From NCBI GenBank assembly GCA_963727805.1, contig CAVSHF010000003.1, positions 928,001 to 992,000 on the forward strand: a stretch of 64,000 nt of DNA, written 5' to 3'. The translations under genes were made by a program, and so were the position numbers. The notes below the pieces were generated by a model. The model searched no databases, was not told the DNA's origin, and was given only the letters and a program-made list of their open reading frames with translations. Positions 28,010 through 37,641 of the stretch are shown piece after piece. Position 1 is the first letter of the stretch, and each line of letters starts with the position of its first letter. The stretch is from an uncultured Nitrospiraceae bacterium (GTDB lineage Bacteria; Nitrospirota; Thermodesulfovibrionia; Thermodesulfovibrionales; Dissulfurispiraceae).

Positions 28010-28516
28010 TTAAGCAGCAGTTTTTCTCTGAACGCATATGATATTCCACTCCTTTAGTTTATCAATGGTCAAATTTATGGCTTTCTCGATGTTGTCATTA
28101 ACAATGTCAGACATTTCAAGTCCAAAGGTGTGATCGGCCGCGGCCGGCTGGATGCCGATCAGGCAAAGATGGGAAGGCATGGATCCCCTCAGGTTGGCAG
28201 CTGTAAGGAGATCGGCAAGACCGAGATTATGCAGCGAAACCTTCGGGAAGATGAGAGCCGCTATTTCGTTGTCTTCGATGATTCCTACATAGCCCGGCTC
28301 TTTACCGAAATCCATGGCGTCGACGATGAGGACTTTATCGACGCTTTCGAAAAGAGGGAGGAGGTCGAGGCCCAGCGTACCGCCATCAACGATCTGAATC
28401 CCAGGAGAACAGGCATATCGCTCTTTGATGGTATTGACCACGTGGACCCCGACCTGCTCATCTTTAAGCAGAATATTTCCCAGTCCTAAAAGTGCTGCTG
28501 ACAAATTAATGACCAT
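28010..28516 (-). CDS. Hydrogenase maturation protease (HyaD/HybD family)
   Basis: GLGNILLKDE, VDGGT, IVDA, SLH and IGIQP; last gene of the hydrogenase operon. Confidence 0.92.
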   Translation of the reverse strand: MVINLSAALLGLGNILLKDEQVGVHVVNTIKERYACSPGIQIVDGGTLGLDLLPLFESVDKVLIVDAMDFGKEPGYVGIIEDNEIAALIFPKVSLHNLGLADLLTAANLRGSMPSHLCLIGIQPAAADHTFGLEMSDIVNDNIEKAINLTIDKLKEWNIICVQRKTAA

Positions 28517-29150
28517 CCTCCATATTTTTATAACCGCTAAACATAGAGCTCATCAAACCATTCCTCTCGATGAGGTCATTGTGCCACGAGATGTATATAT
28601 GAACGATCACGAAAAGGCCGATGACCCACATAATCAAGTGGTGGACAAGCCTCAGATAGGCAACATTCATCAACCCCAGCGACCAGCCCCCGAGCATTGT
28701 CCAAATCGCTCCACCCCCATGAGCCAACGACAACATGGCAAAGCCTGTGACTATCTGGAAGATGTAAAGACAGAACAGGAACGTGTACGAAAGTCCGGCC
28801 AACCCGGTATGTCCCGGATAGTGCGGCAGGTCCTTCCTGCAAAAAGCGTAAAACGATGCCGTACAAACCGTGTTGTCAAACCTCTCTTTGGACGTCGGGA
28901 TAAACTGGTTGAGCTTTGCATACTTGTTGCCCGCAAACCACCAGTACATCCTCACTAAGACGCAGACCGTAAAGAGAAAGGCCGCGACAAAGTGAACGAA
29001 CCGCATGTAAGCCATGATCAGTGAATCGGCATCTCCATCCAAGAAGGGGGCGCCGATGTAAAACCCCGTTACGGATAGCACCACGATGCTCAACGCAATC
29101 AGCCAGTGCGCCACTCGTACCGGGAACTCCCAAACATAGATTCGACTCAT
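28506..29150 (-). CDS. Ni/Fe-hydrogenase cytochrome b subunit (HyaC/HupC family)
   Basis: YVWEFPVRVAHW, RFVHF, RLVHH, VHIY and SSMFSGYK. Confidence 0.95.
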   Translation of the reverse strand: MSRIYVWEFPVRVAHWLIALSIVVLSVTGFYIGAPFLDGDADSLIMAYMRFVHFVAAFLFTVCVLVRMYWWFAGNKYAKLNQFIPTSKERFDNTVCTASFYAFCRKDLPHYPGHTGLAGLSYTFLFCLYIFQIVTGFAMLSLAHGGGAIWTMLGGWSLGLMNVAYLRLVHHLIMWVIGLFVIVHIYISWHNDLIERNGLMSSMFSGYKNMEDGH

Positions 29151-29160
29151 GGCGGCCTCC

Positions 29161-30858
29161 TTATTTCACTTCGACTTTAAAAAGCTCTTTATGTTCTGCG
29201 TCAAAGAGATGAATTGCGCAGGCCATGCAGGGATCAAAGGAATGGATTGTCCTCTGGATCTCAATAGGCTTGGAGGGGTCCGCAATCGGCGTTCCGATAA
29301 GGGCAGCTTCAAACGGACTCTTCTGGCCTTTCGGGTCTCTCGGTCCGGCATTCCACGTTGTGGGGACGACGGCCTGGTAATTCTCGATCTTCCCATCTTT
29401 TATGACAATATAATGAGCGAGGGTGCCCCTCGGTGCATCGTGGAATCCGACGCCTTTGGCTTCTGCAGGCCAGGTTGAAGGGTCCCACTTGTCCGTATTG
29501 GCGGTTTTCAGGTCACCCTTTTTCATGTTTGCAGCAAGCTCGCCGATCCAGTCATTTAACTTTCCGGCGATAATCGCTGTCTCAATGCCCCTTGCAGCGG
29601 TCCGGCCGAGTGTCGAGAAAAGTGCTGCCGGTCCGACTCCCAGCTTGCCAAGAACCATGTCGACGGTTTCCTTGACCTGTTTTTGTCCCGACGCATAGGC
29701 CACGAGGCATCTGGCGAGAGGACCCACTTCCATGGCCTGATCATCATATCTTGGCGTCTTAACCCAGCTGTATTTCTTGCTAGTGTCGAGAGACTCATAA
29801 GGAGGCTTGGGTCCTGTATAGTTGGGGGTTGTTTCGCCCACATACGGATGCTTCGCCTTCGAATCGCCGCCCGAATAGCTGTACCACGAATTGTTGATGT
29901 ATTCAGTGATCTTCGCCGCATCGACAGGATATATCTTGCTCAAATCCTTGTCTTTGATGACTCCCGCTGGGAAAAAGAATTTCCCACTCGCATCGGGGAA
30001 CTCACCGCACGCCAGGAAATTGTTAAAACTCCCGTGGCCAGCCCAATCCTTGTAGAACGAAGCGATCGCGAGTAGATCGGGGATATACACCTTGTTCACA
30101 AAATCAACTGACTTCTGGGCGACTTCATTGAGGAATGCAATGCTTCCCGCATTGATGGCGTTCTGGCTGTTCGGGTCAACTGGAATGGACATACCACCGA
30201 CGAGGAATGTCTGCGGATGCGGATTTTTGGCTCCCAACAGTGCATGAGCACGGATAATGTCTCTCTGCCAGTCGAGTGCTTCGAGGTAATGGGCAACAGC
30301 CATTAGGTTCGCTTCGGGAGGCAGCTTATATTCCTTGTGTCCCCAGTATCCGTTGGCGAAGATGCCGAGCTGGCCGCTCTCGACAAAGGCCTTGAGCTTG
30401 GCGGCGACAGACTTGAAGTAACTAACCGATGAGTTGTTCGGCCAATCTGAAATAGATGAAGCGAGGGCTGCAGTCTTTGCGGGGTCGGCCTTTAACGCGC
30501 TTACGACATCGACCCAGTCAAGGGCGTGCAGATGATAAAAATGGATTACATGGTCATGCACAGACTGGAATCCCATGATCAGGTTTCTGATTATGCGGGC
30601 GTTGTCGGGGATCGTAATGTTAAGTGCGTTTTCAACAGCCCTTATTGACGCAAGGGCATGGACCGTAGTGCAGACGCCACAAAAACGGGAAACAAAGGTC
30701 CAGGCATCTCTTGGGTCTCTGCCCTTCATCATGACTTCGACACCCCTCCACATTGTGCCCGATGCCCAGGCATCTACAATTTTGCCGCCATCGACCTGCG
30801 CTTCAACTCTTAAATGTCCTTCTATTCTTGTTATTGGATCAACGATTATTTTAGCCAT
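29161..30858 (-). CDS. Group 1 [NiFe]-hydrogenase large subunit
   Basis: DPITRIEGH; L1 RFCGVCTTVH; L2 SFDPCMACAIH followed by a 15-aa cleavable extension. Confidence 0.98.
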   Translation of the reverse strand: MAKIIVDPITRIEGHLRVEAQVDGGKIVDAWASGTMWRGVEVMMKGRDPRDAWTFVSRFCGVCTTVHALASIRAVENALNITIPDNARIIRNLIMGFQSVHDHVIHFYHLHALDWVDVVSALKADPAKTAALASSISDWPNNSSVSYFKSVAAKLKAFVESGQLGIFANGYWGHKEYKLPPEANLMAVAHYLEALDWQRDIIRAHALLGAKNPHPQTFLVGGMSIPVDPNSQNAINAGSIAFLNEVAQKSVDFVNKVYIPDLLAIASFYKDWAGHGSFNNFLACGEFPDASGKFFFPAGVIKDKDLSKIYPVDAAKITEYINNSWYSYSGGDSKAKHPYVGETTPNYTGPKPPYESLDTSKKYSWVKTPRYDDQAMEVGPLARCLVAYASGQKQVKETVDMVLGKLGVGPAALFSTLGRTAARGIETAIIAGKLNDWIGELAANMKKGDLKTANTDKWDPSTWPAEAKGVGFHDAPRGTLAHYIVIKDGKIENYQAVVPTTWNAGPRDPKGQKSPFEAALIGTPIADPSKPIEIQRTIHSFDPCMACAIHLFDAEHKELFKVEVK

Positions 30859-30871
30859 TTTTCATCTCCCT

Positions 30872-31939
30872 TTATTTTTCTTTATTTTTGCCTTTTGTGG
30901 CTGTCCTGATAGCTGCGTGAGCCGCTACGGCGGCCACTGCAACTGCCGCTATACCAAGGCCGATCTTGTCAGCGTTGGCCATAACACTCGCGCCAGGTAC
31001 CTTGGGCATTCTCTTGTAGAACGGATATGCCGCGTCCCAGTTCCCCGGTGTCGAGCAGGCAATGCAGCCATGTCCGGCCATTACCGGCCAGCTCGTACCA
31101 CCGTTCCACCTGATTGTCGGACAGTTCTGATGTGCCATCGGGCCCTTGCAGCCCATCTCGTAAAGACACCATCCCTGCTTGGCCCCTTCGTCTCCCCACG
31201 CCTTCACAAACTGCCCGGCATCAAAATGCGGACGCCTCTCACAGTTGTTGTGGATCAGTTTTCCAAAAGCAAACTTCGGACGGCCATTGCTATCCAGGGC
31301 GGGTAATGCACCAAAAGTGAGGAAATGTACTACGGTGGCGGTGAAGTTCTCTACGTTCATCGGACAACCGGCGATGTTGACGACTGTGCCGCCGATAGCT
31401 TCCTGAATACCAACATATCCACCCGGGTTTGGGGCGGCTGCGGAGAGCCCGCCGAAACAGGCACAGTTGCCTACAGCGATATTCGCCATTGCGCCGGCCG
31501 CGACTTCCTTGAGGATAGCCATCGAGGACTTCCCGGCAACGCAGCAATAGACTCCGCCGTCCTTCGAAGAGACTGCTCCCTCATAAACAGCGATATACTG
31601 CCCCTTCTTGTTTTTCAGAATGTCCTGCAGCGATTTCTCAGCGGCTGTTCCACAAGGGGCCATGAGAGTCTCATGGTAATCAAGCGAGATGATATCAAGC
31701 ACAATCTGCCCGATAGTCGGCTTTGTCGCCCTCAAGACTGATTCGGAATCACCGGTACATTCCGCAAAGTGCATCCAGACAACCGACGGTCTCTGCTTCT
31801 TTTCCAGGGCTTCGGCGATCTGCGGGACCGCTGAAGAGCTCAAACCTAAAGTCGCAGCTGTTCCAGCGCAAAACTTCAGGAAGTCCCTGCGCGACACCCC
31901 TCGTCGCGTCAGATAAGAATAAATGCTCTCGTTCTCCAT
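30872..31939 (-). CDS. Group 1 [NiFe]-hydrogenase small subunit (Tat signal, C-terminal anchor)
   Basis: SRRDFLK; ECTGDSES; GNC; GCP; HNNCERR; CLYEMGCKGP; WPVMAGHGCIAC; C-terminal TM helix. Confidence 0.98.
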   Translation of the reverse strand: MENESIYSYLTRRGVSRRDFLKFCAGTAATLGLSSSAVPQIAEALEKKQRPSVVWMHFAECTGDSESVLRATKPTIGQIVLDIISLDYHETLMAPCGTAAEKSLQDILKNKKGQYIAVYEGAVSSKDGGVYCCVAGKSSMAILKEVAAGAMANIAVGNCACFGGLSAAAPNPGGYVGIQEAIGGTVVNIAGCPMNVENFTATVVHFLTFGALPALDSNGRPKFAFGKLIHNNCERRPHFDAGQFVKAWGDEGAKQGWCLYEMGCKGPMAHQNCPTIRWNGGTSWPVMAGHGCIACSTPGNWDAAYPFYKRMPKVPGASVMANADKIGLGIAAVAVAAVAAHAAIRTATKGKNKEK

Positions 31940-32041
31940 ACCCGTCCTCCTGTGACGAAATTTAACTCTACAATATAGAGTTAATGATGTCGATATCCAT
32001 ATGAAGCGAAAACGCCGAAAAATAGGCCTCCATTCTCAAAT

Positions 32042-32162
32042 TGGAGAGAGGCAGTGGGAATCGGACCCACTCTCGGTTCATTAATATATGGCAAGCGCTC
32101 AATTGCCTTGAACCGTGATGCTGGTTTTGCACACCAGATGAGGCACCAGCCCCATGCCCCCC
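32042..32162 (-). tRNA. Non-canonical tRNA-Sec-shaped tRNA with Cys anticodon GCA (selC*-like), possibly degenerate
   Basis: Acceptor GGGGGGCA/TGCCTCTC (8 bp) + T73 + CCA; D arm TGGGGC-TGGT-GCCTCA; anticodon arm CTGGT-GTGCAAA-ACCAG; variable arm of about 50 nt; T arm GTGGG-TCCGATT-CCCAC. Confidence 0.8.
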
Positions 32163-32350
32163 GGAAACAGCTCAGAGTAGAGACGGTCATCTCCTATTAC
32201 TTCATCCATACGATGGAAACAGTAGCTTATTTGACCAGATATGGTTTCCGAACCGGAATGGCGAAACTGAAGAGTATTCATATTTTCATTCAATTCGCCT
32301 TTATTGATACGTCGTGGGTAGTTGTCTCAGAGAGTGTACTATATTTAAGG

Positions 32351-32374
32351 CCTATGCCTATGCCTATGCCTATG
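32351..32374. repeat. Hexamer tandem repeat (CCTATG)4
   Basis: Read directly from the sequence. Confidence 0.9.
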
Positions 32375-32518
32375 ATAGCCCGGTGGATCATTAGCAGTTA
32401 AATTAATATAGATGATGTCAATATGTAAAATAGATTAATTGAATAGTTTAAACTGGAGTTATAGATTTGTCCCCACAATCTAAAGATGGATGGATGATGA
32501 CTGGCTGAGATCCAAGCG

Positions 32519-34797: not shown

Positions 34798-35394
34798 TTA
34801 CCAGCCAGACATCTGTCGAGGGAAGTAATTTCCATAGCGAAGCTCTCTCAGCAGATCGTTCATGCCATGAATATCTTTATCGAACACAGTCACGATTTTC
34901 CCTACCTCTTCCAGAGTATGGGCATCACTGCCTCCGACCTGCTTTATTCCGTTACCCTGTCTATTCAGCCATTCATTGCACAAACCGTTCTCGGCAGGGT
35001 GATTTCTCCCGTTTAGCCCCTCAACAATTTGAGAGTTTTGAAGAACGCTTGTCAGAACTGGCCTGTTGTGACGGAAAGGATGGGCCGGAATCGCAACTCC
35101 GTCTTCTCTTTGAACCCACGGAAGAAGCTCATCGGCATCCATGTGGTGTGGAATACGATCAAAAGGTCCAAATACCAGAAAGTCCCCCTTTGGTGTTGTA
35201 TATTCCATGCCGACAATAACACATATCCCATATCTATCAGCGATACTTTCGAATACTGATTTTGAAGCTACAGAATCATGATCTGTTATGCAAATTCCGT
35301 GTAGGCCGACATCGCTTGCTCTTCTTAGGAGTTGAGGGATATCGATTATACTGCAAGGCGAAAAGTGAGTATGGATATGCATATCTATAACCAT
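34798..35394 (-). CDS. PHP-domain metallophosphoesterase
   Basis: DMHIHT, ITDH, GME, AHP and GGSDAH motifs. Confidence 0.92.
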   Translation of the reverse strand: MVIDMHIHTHFSPCSIIDIPQLLRRASDVGLHGICITDHDSVASKSVFESIADRYGICVIVGMEYTTPKGDFLVFGPFDRIPHHMDADELLPWVQREDGVAIPAHPFRHNRPVLTSVLQNSQIVEGLNGRNHPAENGLCNEWLNRQGNGIKQVGGSDAHTLEEVGKIVTVFDKDIHGMNDLLRELRYGNYFPRQMSGW

Positions 35395-35513
35395 ACTTTA
35401 ATACTAGCCCCCCGGTCTTATTCAGTCAAATAGGTACTATCAATGGAAGAAGTAAATTCTATCGCTCAAATCTATTCGCCGGAGGTGAAAGGTAATGGTA
35501 TGATAGAAATCAA

Positions 35514-36812
35514 ATGCGCTGCATATTAGTAATTCTTGACGGCATTGGCGATAGGGGACAGGTCTGCTTTGATGGCAAGACTCCCCTTGATGCTGCATAC
35601 ACGCCTAACATGGATCATCTCGCCTCTATAGGGATGAATGGCCTGTATCATAGTCTGGCGCAGGGCATTCCAATGTCAAGCGAAACCGCTCATTTTTTAA
35701 TCTTTGGCAATGATATCGAGGACTTTCCCGGAAGGGGTGTTATTGAGGCCATAGGTGAGGGGATTCCTGTCGAAAATACGGATGTTGCAATACTGTGCCA
35801 TTTGTGCTCTGTTGACAAAAAAGATAATTGTCTCATCCTAACCCATGGGCGCCCCGAAAGCCATGACGAAGTACTTATGGCATTGAAAGAAGAGATAAGG
35901 ACATTTGAAGCTGAGGGGATAGAGATCCAACTCGTACATTCCAGAAAGATCGATGGCTTTCTTATGTTAAAAGGAGATGTATCGGCGGATATAACCGATT
36001 CCGACCCTATATACGAAGGGAAGCGGGTTATTGAGGTTATGCCGACGCTTCGACAAACGATCACGAGAGCATCAGAAAAAACTGCGGCAGTATTAAATCG
36101 ATATCTGATCTGGTCTCATCAAAAGCTCTCTGCTCATCCCACCAATATGGATAGAATTGCAGGTGGCCTCCTACCCATGAACGCTCTTGTTACTCAAAGA
36201 GCAGGTAAAAAAAGAGAATTGGCATCTTTCACGAAGAAATGGGGGCTTCGGGGCCTCTCAATCTCTTCTGGTCCCATCTATTGGGGGTTATGCAGTGAAT
36301 TGGGGATAGAAACCGTAAAAGTCCGAGACACAGGAAATATTGAAGAAGACTTGAAATACCGTCTCCGCGTCGCCAAGGATGCCAAGAATTATGATTTCAT
36401 CCATGTCCACACGAAGATGCCTGACGAGGCTGGTCATACAAAAAACCCTCAGTACAAGAAAGAAGTCATTGAAGCTATCGATCGAGCGATGTCTGTTGCT
36501 ATCAGTGAAATCATACCAGATAATGAAGTCTTGCTTGTTGTTACCGCAGATCATTCTACGGCAAGCTCGGGTATTATGATACACACAGGTGAGACGGTAC
36601 CACTGACCATGGTCGGCAAATATGTGAGAAGGGATAAGGTCGGAGAATTTAATGAAGTCAGTTGCGCAAGCGGAGCGTTGGGAATTGTAAAAGGGAAGGA
36701 ATTGATGTACCTCATTCTTAATTTTCTTGACAGGATAAAAATGTATGGACTTATGGATACACCCGTCGATCAGCCATACTATCCTGGGAATTATAAGCCG
36801 TTGACACTGTAA
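35514..36812 (+). CDS. Archaeal-type cofactor-independent phosphoglycerate mutase family (ApgM-like) metalloenzyme
   Basis: ILDGIGD, TPL.AA.TPNMD, SETAH, GRG..EA.G, DEAGH, VTADHST and H...VP. Confidence 0.88.
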   Translation: MRCILVILDGIGDRGQVCFDGKTPLDAAYTPNMDHLASIGMNGLYHSLAQGIPMSSETAHFLIFGNDIEDFPGRGVIEAIGEGIPVENTDVAILCHLCSVDKKDNCLILTHGRPESHDEVLMALKEEIRTFEAEGIEIQLVHSRKIDGFLMLKGDVSADITDSDPIYEGKRVIEVMPTLRQTITRASEKTAAVLNRYLIWSHQKLSAHPTNMDRIAGGLLPMNALVTQRAGKKRELASFTKKWGLRGLSISSGPIYWGLCSELGIETVKVRDTGNIEEDLKYRLRVAKDAKNYDFIHVHTKMPDEAGHTKNPQYKKEVIEAIDRAMSVAISEIIPDNEVLLVVTADHSTASSGIMIHTGETVPLTMVGKYVRRDKVGEFNEVSCASGALGIVKGKELMYLILNFLDRIKMYGLMDTPVDQPYYPGNYKPLTL

Positions 36813-36816
36813 TCAT

Positions 36817-37641
36817 ATGGAGAAAAGGCTTCTCGATATTTTGGCCACCAAGCCAACACTTGTCTTTAATTTCCCCGAGTGGATGCTCCCTGCGGCAATG
36901 ATTGATGAGATCCTAGAGACAGCGGATACTATCATAGTTGAAATGGCGGGAAGGGATAGCATTGCAGCGGCAATAAAGGCAACCAGTATGATCTCGGTCA
37001 AAGCGGTCATCCCCACTATAGCCTACTCCGGCACAGAATTCGGAAGCTGGGAGATACTGCTAAAAAAAACCGCCTTTCTCAAAGAGAGGCTAAAAAGTTT
37101 CGACATTAAGGTTTTTGACCCCGTCTTTTTGGGTGATGCCAGACTCTGGCGAGTGCTCTGCGGAAGATATACGACTCATCTTTTCAAGCGTTTCGGCTTT
37201 TATACGCCCTGTGTGGGTTGCCATTTATATCTTCATGTCTTAAGAATACCCCTGGCGAAAATGTTGGGCTGCAAGAAGGTCATCGGCGGAGAACGCGAAA
37301 CTCATGACGGCAAAATCAAACTCAATCAAATCAGCATTGCCCTTGATGCATATATCGACCTGCTCCAGAATTTCGGCATAGAACTCATTTTGCCGCTCAG
37401 GCACGTCAAATCAGGTAACGATGTAGAGTCAATTATAGGACAACATTGGGAGGAAGGAGGGGAACAAATGCAGTGTATCATGAGTAATAATTATCGAGAG
37501 GTTGATGGTTCCGCAGTCTATGTAGAAAACTCCATGAAAAGATACTTCGATGAGTTTGCATTAAATATTGCTGAAAGAGCGATACGTAGTTATCTTGAGA
37601 AAAAGACACCTGAATATGAAAAGCTGATTCAGTCTCCTTAA
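36817..37641 (+). CDS. Hypothetical protein with adenine-nucleotide alpha-hydrolase (PP-loop)-like features and CxxC
   Basis: IVEMAGRDS resembles SGGxDS; also PCVGCH, IGGER and LPL. Starts 4 nt after the mutase stop codon. Confidence 0.6.
   Translation: MEKRLLDILATKPTLVFNFPEWMLPAAMIDEILETADTIIVEMAGRDSIAAAIKATSMISVKAVIPTIAYSGTEFGSWEILLKKTAFLKERLKSFDIKVFDPVFLGDARLWRVLCGRYTTHLFKRFGFYTPCVGCHLYLHVLRIPLAKMLGCKKVIGGERETHDGKIKLNQISIALDAYIDLLQNFGIELILPLRHVKSGNDVESIIGQHWEEGGEQMQCIMSNNYREVDGSAVYVENSMKRYFDEFALNIAERAIRSYLEKKTPEYEKLIQSP

Follow-up and report, generated by a model that had tools for sequence, protein, structure and literature searches.

A drifting tRNA-ReC gene in a two-frame leader, a likely selenocysteine sensor, in an uncultured Nitrospiraceae bacterium

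The window analyzed here, a 64,000-nt stretch from the genome of an uncultured Nitrospiraceae bacterium, carries on its minus strand what appears to be a drifting duplicate of a tRNA-ReC gene. It lies within a genus-wide leader of two reading frames that is likely a selenocysteine sensor acting by stop and restart at an AUGA (probability roughly 0.55). In what follows, the window copy is the tRNA-ReC gene at 32162-32042 (minus strand), G000 is the source genome, other G numbers are genomes of relatives, and L numbers are loci. Directly observed are the tRNA family, its promoter motif, an invariant AUGA where the UGA of the first frame (ORF1) overlaps the start of the second (ORF2), a stop fixed 16 codons later, and the open second frame with its ends. 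The tRNA-ReC family has already been described, and by its sequences the long-armed form is a subtype of it. What appears to be new is this long-arm variant and the surrounding leader with its nested frame, the leader being the valuable part.

The tRNA-ReC gene and its family

32042..32162, minus strand: selC*/tRNA-ReC gene of the Nitrospirae type, 8/5 fold, anticodon GCA at 32130-32128, U73, encoded CCA; apparently a drifting copy, with G32 at 32132 and C55 at 32064
32071..32120, minus strand: variable region of the tRNA, 50 nt, with a basal helix and a distal hairpin; an AU-rich loop stands where many long-arm relatives are predicted to have a second, small hairpin

The window copy is 121 nt long, with its 5' end at 32162 and its CCA end at 32042. 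The complete cloverleaf described in the initial annotation is real: it lies on the minus strand and folds at -49.6 kcal/mol (z -2.79), with 0/200 shuffles equally good, and the plus strand of the same stretch forms no cloverleaf (z -1.17). The 8-bp acceptor, 5-bp T stem, GCA anticodon, U73, and encoded CCA reported there were all confirmed from the sequence, as were G32 and the T loop UCCGAUU. The lowest-energy fold of the window copy is a 7/6 alternative rather than 8/5, and the 8/5 register is assigned from family covariation. The 6-bp D stem without a linker gave way to the family reading of a 1-nt linker and a 5-bp D stem: of the 61 loci with a 17-nt D region, just 36 have the sixth pair, which is not required. 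Both variable-arm helices that had been noticed are present in the 50-nt region, nested and not side by side.

Relatives were collected from 61 and 151 genomes and from metagenomes by DNA and covariance-model searches, together with 40 further regions, giving 88 parsed loci, 86 of them distinct. The parser demanded a GCA or UCA anticodon arm, and hence U73 and CCA are free tests. GCA, U73, and CCA are present in 88/88 loci, and an 8-bp acceptor in 86/88. Homologues and covariation, the evidence the initial annotation had looked to, were both found: on 21 aligned relatives, the 8/5 structure pairs 97.9% of cells with 14/29 pairs compensatory, 0/500 shuffles score as high, and all slid registers are lower. 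On a corrected family model built without it, the window copy scores 82.3 bits (the tRNA-Sec of G000 scores 56).

ARAGORN missed the window copy, and the Rfam tRNA-Sec covariance model gave it 44.7 bits, below the gathering score of 47. This score, together with GCA rather than UCA and U73 rather than G73, ruled out a canonical tRNA-Sec. The 8/4 selC* type with a dedicated selB*/cysS*, confined to certain deltaproteobacteria (Mukai et al. 2017, PMC5389517), has an A51a bulge, a second selB downstream and, where cysS* is present, A1:U72 and UCA (PMC5389517). It was ruled out by the 8/5 fold, G1:C72, GCA, and the single selB; the second selB-like gene that had been suggested for search is absent from G000.

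The selC*-type Cys identity proposed at the outset was borne out by family membership. The window copy has the tRNA-Sec-like fold, extended acceptor stem, and long variable arm of selC*/tRNA-ReC; it combines U73 and a GCA or UCA anticodon with a length of at least 80 nt, the definition used in PMC13582414; and its host has selA, selB, selC, and selD. Across the family, the anticodon and T arms match the Thermodesulfovibrio and Nitrospirae-type selC* tRNA-Cys in the PMC5389517 supplement. These published sequences already read as 8/5 by inspection and 86 of our loci have the 8-bp acceptor, so that the suggested new 8/5 type does not hold. Nor is the long arm a peculiarity of the window copy, since variable regions of at least 40 nt (48-61 nt, with a predicted branch) occur in 23/88 loci. 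In the published Nitrospirae type (PMC5389517; Vargas-Rodriguez et al. 2018 via PMC13582414), which shares the Sec-like fold, GCA, U73, the anticodon arm, the T arm, and a host with a full sel system, this region measures ~22-26 nt in the PMC5389517 sequences; none of the 52 sequences in the consulted part of that supplement has a 48-61-nt arm and none appears to exceed ~100 nt overall. The consulted text of PMC5389517 likewise makes no mention of a leader or nested frame for these tRNAs. Further differences from the published type are the absence of selB* from G000 and the G32 and C55 of the window copy. A branched variable arm was rejected as the consensus, as 18 sequences yielded only a 6-bp basal helix and the branch comes from single-sequence folds.

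With either anticodon, tRNA-ReC decodes SECIS-marked UGA as Cys (PMC13582414, citing Vargas-Rodriguez et al. 2018); it is charged with Cys and works with SelB. It has been proposed as a back-up under selenium scarcity (PMC9437257), and its division of work with tRNA-Sec has been called unclear (PMC13582414). Charging by CysRS, binding of SelB, and recoding of UGA would be expected of the window copy from its family, and G32 and C55 may impair them.

The suspicion that this copy may be decaying was well placed. Among the 88 loci, it alone carries G32 and it alone carries C at T-loop position 55, and a paralogous tRNA-ReC with neither change lies 34 kb away in the same genome (G000:C3:994188-994317), preceding a YeeE-family gene. 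For these reasons, we regard the window copy as a drifting duplicate. Its score is the fourth lowest of 30 family loci (75.8-110.4 bits) and the lowest of the intact copies in the genus, two broken copies scoring 48-51. A contig from another study's sequencing run covers 31860-32211 with 9 differences and no gap, and the junction between tRNA and hydrogenase is thus not a misassembly. When 22 sequencing runs were screened by sequence words, none contained half of them, and in two RNA runs the sole piece on the window-copy tRNA was a 41-nt match with 3 differences, which is no evidence of expression.

Promoter, host genome, and neighboring genes

28010..31939, minus strand: Cys-type [NiFe] hydrogenase operon, with small subunit, large subunit (C-terminal DPCxxC, TGC), cytochrome b, and maturation protease
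31962..31984, minus strand: palindrome in a 47-nt hydrogenase 5' region common to a second operon at ~G000:C3:1355470
32400..32467, minus strand: predicted promoter with repeated CTAT boxes (presumably LysR-type), -35 at 32429-32424 and -10 at 32405-32400; 41 bits
32776..34479, minus strand: two rhodanese-domain genes, upstream on the same strand

A CTAT box abutting the -35 element was found within 330 nt in 29 of 42 relatives' loci, mostly ~42 nt before the tRNA. A matrix built from these 29 tRNA-ReC promoters was used to scan G000, and only two hits exceeded 14 bits, one of 41 bits at the window locus and one of 23.4 bits at a Cys-type Fdh-like gene. The promoter of the paralog failed this cut-off; there, the CTAT box next to a perfect -35 has been lost, and the two G000 copies retain complementary halves. 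A Cys-type molybdopterin oxidoreductase gene (G000:C3:164907-167208) stands behind the same promoter motif, and its homologue is divergent from the leader in G004, L148, L153, and L155 and downstream of tRNA-ReC in G075.

Genes linked to selenium recur beside tRNA-ReC across the order, including LysR_Sec_metab and YedF (both over cut-off), YeeE-family genes, and a double-cubane reductase. In L014 the upstream gene exceeds the LysR_Sec_metab cut-off; at other loci, the tRNA is followed by YedF and the double-cubane reductase. G000 encodes two LysR_Sec_metab regulators, and the conservation of the CTAT motif suggests that a regulator of this kind binds it. The LysR subfamily that includes HrsM is linked to selenium, as are YedE and YedF, and HrsM represses Cys-type hydrogenases (PMC5322559). 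The present locus would share with the HrsM/LysR_Se regulon, in which Cys-type hydrogenases of Methanococcus are selenium-repressed, a selenium-linked LysR control. In contrast to that regulon, the motif here is recognized by conservation only, and G000 has no Sec-type hydrogenase partner.

By markers, G000 is 100% complete. It has a canonical tRNA-Sec (true selC, G000:C5:831772) and tRNA-Cys, one selA, one selB, and two Sec-type selD genes, as well as three Fdh-alpha matches, one with a TGA, and a rhodanese with one TGA; these selenoprotein genes come from family searches, blind scans being too noisy. The search for an extra cysS, also suggested initially, did recover a second CysRS-like gene (G000:C3:1748738-1749955; L087:1495-2715), which encodes 406 aa with the catalytic domain only and lies far from both tRNA copies. 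The residues changed in this protein are presumably zinc ligands. An identical element with an in-frame TGA between open stretches of 228 and 118 codons occurs in at least nine places in G000 (e.g., C3:848838 and C5:395209) and is probably an insertion sequence. In one family (L113, L117, L118, L120, and L122-L130), two adjacent hairpins follow the selD UGA, with loops at ~+17 and ~+33; because they adjoin, the working SECIS of these genes is ambiguous.

As first noted, the tRNA precedes the hydrogenase small subunit by about 100 nt on the same strand (102 nt to the start at 31939). A second hydrogenase operon in G000 (~C3:1355469) has a small subunit 98% identical. Neither tblastn nor a motif scan found a [NiFeSe] hydrogenase in G000 for this enzyme to replace, which counts against the selenium-sensor reading of the locus. 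Among the seven leader-bearing genomes of the genus, two, G000 and G003, have the small subunit directly next; YeeE intervenes in G005, and YeeE plus a split-Soret-like gene in G001. In G004 there is no such link, and two contigs end too early. The hydrogenase is one of several cargoes and is not what the tRNA is for. Rhodanese genes precede the locus also in G002, G005, and G007. Farther upstream, 34798-37641 holds a PHP-family gene, a phosphoglycerate mutase, and a 274-aa gene without a Pfam or NCBIfam match; this trio recurs beside tRNA-ReC and a full-length selB in G111 (L163), and of its members the 274-aa gene is also found next to tRNA-ReC in G164.

A leader with two frames

32227..32391, minus strand: leader ORF1, whose AUG comes 9 nt after the predicted -10; it has a conserved in-frame UGA (32280-32278) and ends with UAA (32229-32227)
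32260..32299, minus strand: predicted helix P1, 32299-32292 paired with 32267-32260; the UGA and both AUGs lie within it, and the purine-rich stretch before them is covered
32246..32258, minus strand: SECIS-like hairpin, 5-bp stem and GUU loop, beginning 25 nt after the UGA
32099..32281, minus strand: ORF2, starting at the AUG that overlaps the UGA (AUGA); 60 codons, ending inside the variable arm

In this genus, ~210 additional nucleotides separate promoter and tRNA, and ORF1 opens in them. In 11 of 12 sequences, a whole number of codons separates its AUG from the leader UGA (90, 93, 102, 105, or 111 nt); the distance is 92 nt in G003, whose tRNA is decayed. The AUGA is invariant (13/13), and ORF1 stops 16 codons past the UGA. 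ORF1 is open in 10/12 sequences (P 0.04-0.10), which is weak taken alone. A 6-nt tandem repeat within ORF1 (32362-32385) is expanded in the window copy with the frame unbroken.

A hairpin with a GUY loop starts 24-25 nt after the leader UGA, and the Sec codons of the G000 fdh and selD genes show a like loop at 18-24 nt. A rule requiring a GU/GG loop, defined after the sites had been inspected, fits 5/6 Sec codons of G000, 11/13 leaders, and 1,446 of 149,999 genomic TGA triplets (0.96%). The bacterial SECIS model specifies a loop of 3-9 nt, a stem of 4-16 bp, G in the first two loop positions, a distance of 16-37 nt from the UGA, and a stability of -7.5 kcal/mol or lower (PMC13188914). The leader hairpin fits its geometry (5-bp stem, GUU loop, +25 from the UGA) and its energy in part: alone, it is weaker than the threshold (PMC13188914), at -3 to -7 kcal/mol, -3.1 in the window copy, and +1.2 in G007; the 61-nt leader stretch reaches -7.9 kcal/mol in the window copy and -3.7 to -15.2 in seven loci. 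P1 is 91% paired across leaders. P1 and the hairpin are conserved and show no covariation beyond shuffles (score 0.092 versus 0.090, 92/500 shuffles).

The in-frame UGA, the SECIS-like hairpin, and a conserved FAVPVR stretch could also mark ORF1 as the gene of a small, functional selenopeptide (~50 residues) that shares its transcript with the tRNA. We consider this very improbable: the first 30 residues are unconserved, no Cys partner is conserved, FAVPVR falls where the RNA helices lie, the window copy and G003 have a broken frame, and ORF2 is not accounted for.

The leader is confined to one genus, and its sequences are kin, with few independent events. Its exact pattern occurs 6 times in the genome collection, always in this genus, and 13 times in metagenomes, where loci were retrieved by a pattern that includes the UGA, hairpin, and stop. 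A leader covariance model matches 7/8 genomes of the genus and gives weak matches (22-25 bits) in 1/60 other genomes of the family and 2/150 of the order; outside the genus, pattern matches at 1-2 mismatches are at about the reversed-control level. The leader persists where the tRNA has decayed, and G004 contains one leader with neither tRNA nor gene behind it, as well as one decayed locus.

ORF2 comprises 86-124 codons in relatives and crosses the whole tRNA. From the AUGA to the tRNA 3' end, its frame is free of stops in 11 of 12 sequences; over that span the ORF1 frame has 2-5 stops and the third frame 0-6. The comparison with other loci drew on 49 distinct tRNAs, 2 of which were dropped for short flanks. 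A frame that begins with AUG is open from 100 nt or more upstream to the end of the tRNA in 8/9 leader loci, the window copy being the exception, versus 0/38 others, a lenient control because these 38 loci mostly have the promoter directly upstream. A neutral simulation on a fitted tree, run with each of four observed sequences as its starting point and with invariant columns held constant, expects 5.0-5.6 of 11 frames to be open; 11/11 were observed (P 0.003-0.015), with the span ending at the variable arm and L018 left out for its 20-nt insertion. A stronger P (≤0.001) from an earlier simulation had been inflated by frame-shifting indels and was replaced by these values.

The ends of ORF2 often lie near the next start. 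They overlap it by 8 nt in L148 and L153 (L155 is alike, cut by the contig end) and by 11 nt in L150, and precede it by 12 nt in L018, 24 in L010, 28 in L144/L154, and 61 in G003; in G002 and G007, the contigs end ahead of this distance. The end is 100 nt before YeeE in the paralog and 159 nt before the hydrogenase start in the window copy. In L144/L154, a 24-nt deletion removed the anticodon arm and kept the frame, and G003 retains a 121-codon ORF2 through its decayed tRNA ahead of the hydrogenase. ORF2 extends up to 40 codons past the tRNA and survives frame-changing indels in the variable arm. Its peptide is not conserved and the second half is read in different frames, and translation rather than the product therefore seems to matter.

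In most relatives, there is no leader and this promoter stands ~42 nt ahead of the tRNA, which fits an ordinary tRNA-ReC unit under a LysR-type selenium regulator, the long leader being an inserted spacer whose frames are open by descent and chance. The lack of covariation in the leader helices, the restriction to a single genus, and the borderline ORF1 test agree with this. However, ORF2 stays open through the divergent spacer (P 0.003-0.015), despite frame-changing indels in the variable arm, and as far as 40 codons beyond the tRNA; its frame was preserved by a 24-nt deletion, and both the AUGA and the stop position are fixed. We therefore judge a mere spacer unlikely.

Proposed stop and restart at the leader UGA

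We favor the reading of the leader as a selenocysteine sensor with stop and restart at the AUGA. Termination-reinitiation occurs at AUGA overlaps, and stop and restart is the simplest interpretation that uses every conserved feature, each of its steps being inferred. ORF1 would be translated from a leaderless AUG. With selenium present, SelB would bind the hairpin, the UGA would be read through, and the ribosome would leave at the UAA; the ORF2 AUG, hidden in P1, would not be started, and the bare RNA would be terminated (Rho) or cut at the folded tRNA, keeping downstream genes off. With selenium absent, termination at the UGA would be followed by re-initiation at the overlapping AUG, and the ribosome would cross the tRNA to reach the start of YeeE, the split-Soret cytochrome, or the hydrogenase, turning these genes on. 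Cys-tRNA-ReC could read the same leader UGA, damping its own synthesis. Taken in full, and at about even odds in our estimation, this would be a new switch design, in which failed decoding of a UGA fires AUG re-initiation through a whole tRNA-ReC gene to the next cistron, one UGA picks either tRNA excision or selenium-starvation genes, and the tRNA feeds back on its own leader. The initial annotation had guessed at a regulatory role for the tRNA-like element; such a role is supported in a different form, as the control element appears to be the leader at 32391-32099, which had gone unseen.

P1 encloses the UGA and abuts the hairpin, and in Treponema primitia fdhF transcription is governed by Sec-codon uncoupling (PMC3892789). 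The leader might thus sense Sec by means of stalled ribosomes and a refolded RNA, or its response might have the opposite sign; in either case ORF2 would be secondary. We hold this to be improbable, as no conserved terminator or alternative helix was found downstream, and neither the constraint on ORF2 nor the closeness of its ends to downstream starts would be explained. No terminator was found on the minus strand at the window locus, and none is conserved across leaders by inspection.

In the window copy itself, the broken ORF2 and the premature ORF1 stop count against a working sensor. ORF1 has an extra UGA at 32292-32290 with an in-frame AUG immediately after it, and this second AUG could preserve a four-codon sensor. 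Because ORF2 ends in the variable arm, 159 nt short of the hydrogenase, direct coupling is lost here, and regulation probably depends to a greater degree on the promoter. A serious possibility that concerns this copy alone, at somewhat less than an even chance, is that its tRNA is a dead pseudo-tRNA from a duplication and that the hydrogenase is expressed independently of it. The two unique substitutions, the altered variable arm, the premature ORF1 stop, and the short ORF2 all speak for it, as do the near-identical hydrogenase operon elsewhere in G000 (small subunit 98%) and the decayed copies in G003 and G004. Against it, the acceptor, D, anticodon, and T stems are all fully paired, 82.3 bits falls within the range of the 30 family loci (75.8-110.4), the promoter is the best G000 match to the family matrix, and just weak promoter-like sites lie between tRNA and hydrogenase. 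The paralog locus (L002, G000:C3:994072-994560), 2 kb past the window end, has an intact ORF1, a canonical tRNA-ReC, and the YeeE-family gene behind it.

A second arrangement was seen in three families (L057, L023, L060, L073, and L229), where a short frame ends in G-[C/Y]-[T/P/L]-UGA-AUG 5 nt before the tRNA, with the AUG overlapping position 1. The D arm there sits in the place of a SECIS (loop ~17 nt after the UGA), and the frame crosses the whole tRNA in 4/5. It was not accepted as a switch, both outcomes staying in one frame, and it may instead reflect RNase P preferences or shared descent.

The closest known parallel is tRNA-Sec nested in the selB frame (Mukai 2021, PMC8124441), which shares a whole Sec-type tRNA in an open frame with a stop overlapping the next start, and remnants that keep the frame; there, translation and tRNA processing were proposed as alternatives. 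In that case the frame is the tail of a real protein with no known trigger in the parts of PMC8124441 consulted, whereas here the nested tRNA is tRNA-ReC and the frame encodes an unconserved peptide, its AUG overlapping a UGA that has a SECIS-like hairpin behind it. Leader-peptide attenuators of the trpL type (described in PMC3892789) likewise use a short leader frame with a sensed codon to gate downstream genes. A conserved short leader frame with a sensing codon is present here, but an alternative terminator/antiterminator was not found; the sensed codon would be a stop recoded by SelB, no terminator switch was seen, and the leader appears to act by re-initiating translation in a second frame. 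The fdhF gene of Treponema primitia (PMC3892789) shares natural transcription control by Sec decoding at a UGA with a SECIS; it differs in that control lies inside a selenoprotein gene and is off without selenium, while the dedicated leader here is predicted to be on. A Sec-sensing leader with a tRNA-spanning frame was not found in the open-access literature, subscription papers (including Vargas-Rodriguez 2018) being outside that scope, and the accessible portion of a 2026 review mentions no leaders, uORFs, or attenuation.

The finding of tRNA-ReC behind one conserved promoter motif across the order, beside selenium-linked genes and, in one genus, within a UGA/SECIS leader, gives direct genomic support to the idea of a back-up under selenium starvation. 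The enlarged variable arms probe the tolerance of CysRS, SelB, and the ribosome for additional RNA. If the proposed mechanism is true, the nested-tRNA model of PMC8124441 would gain a trigger, a UGA that is stopped at or read through and so gates re-initiation across the tRNA, and the leader would be a compact biosensor for Sec insertion.
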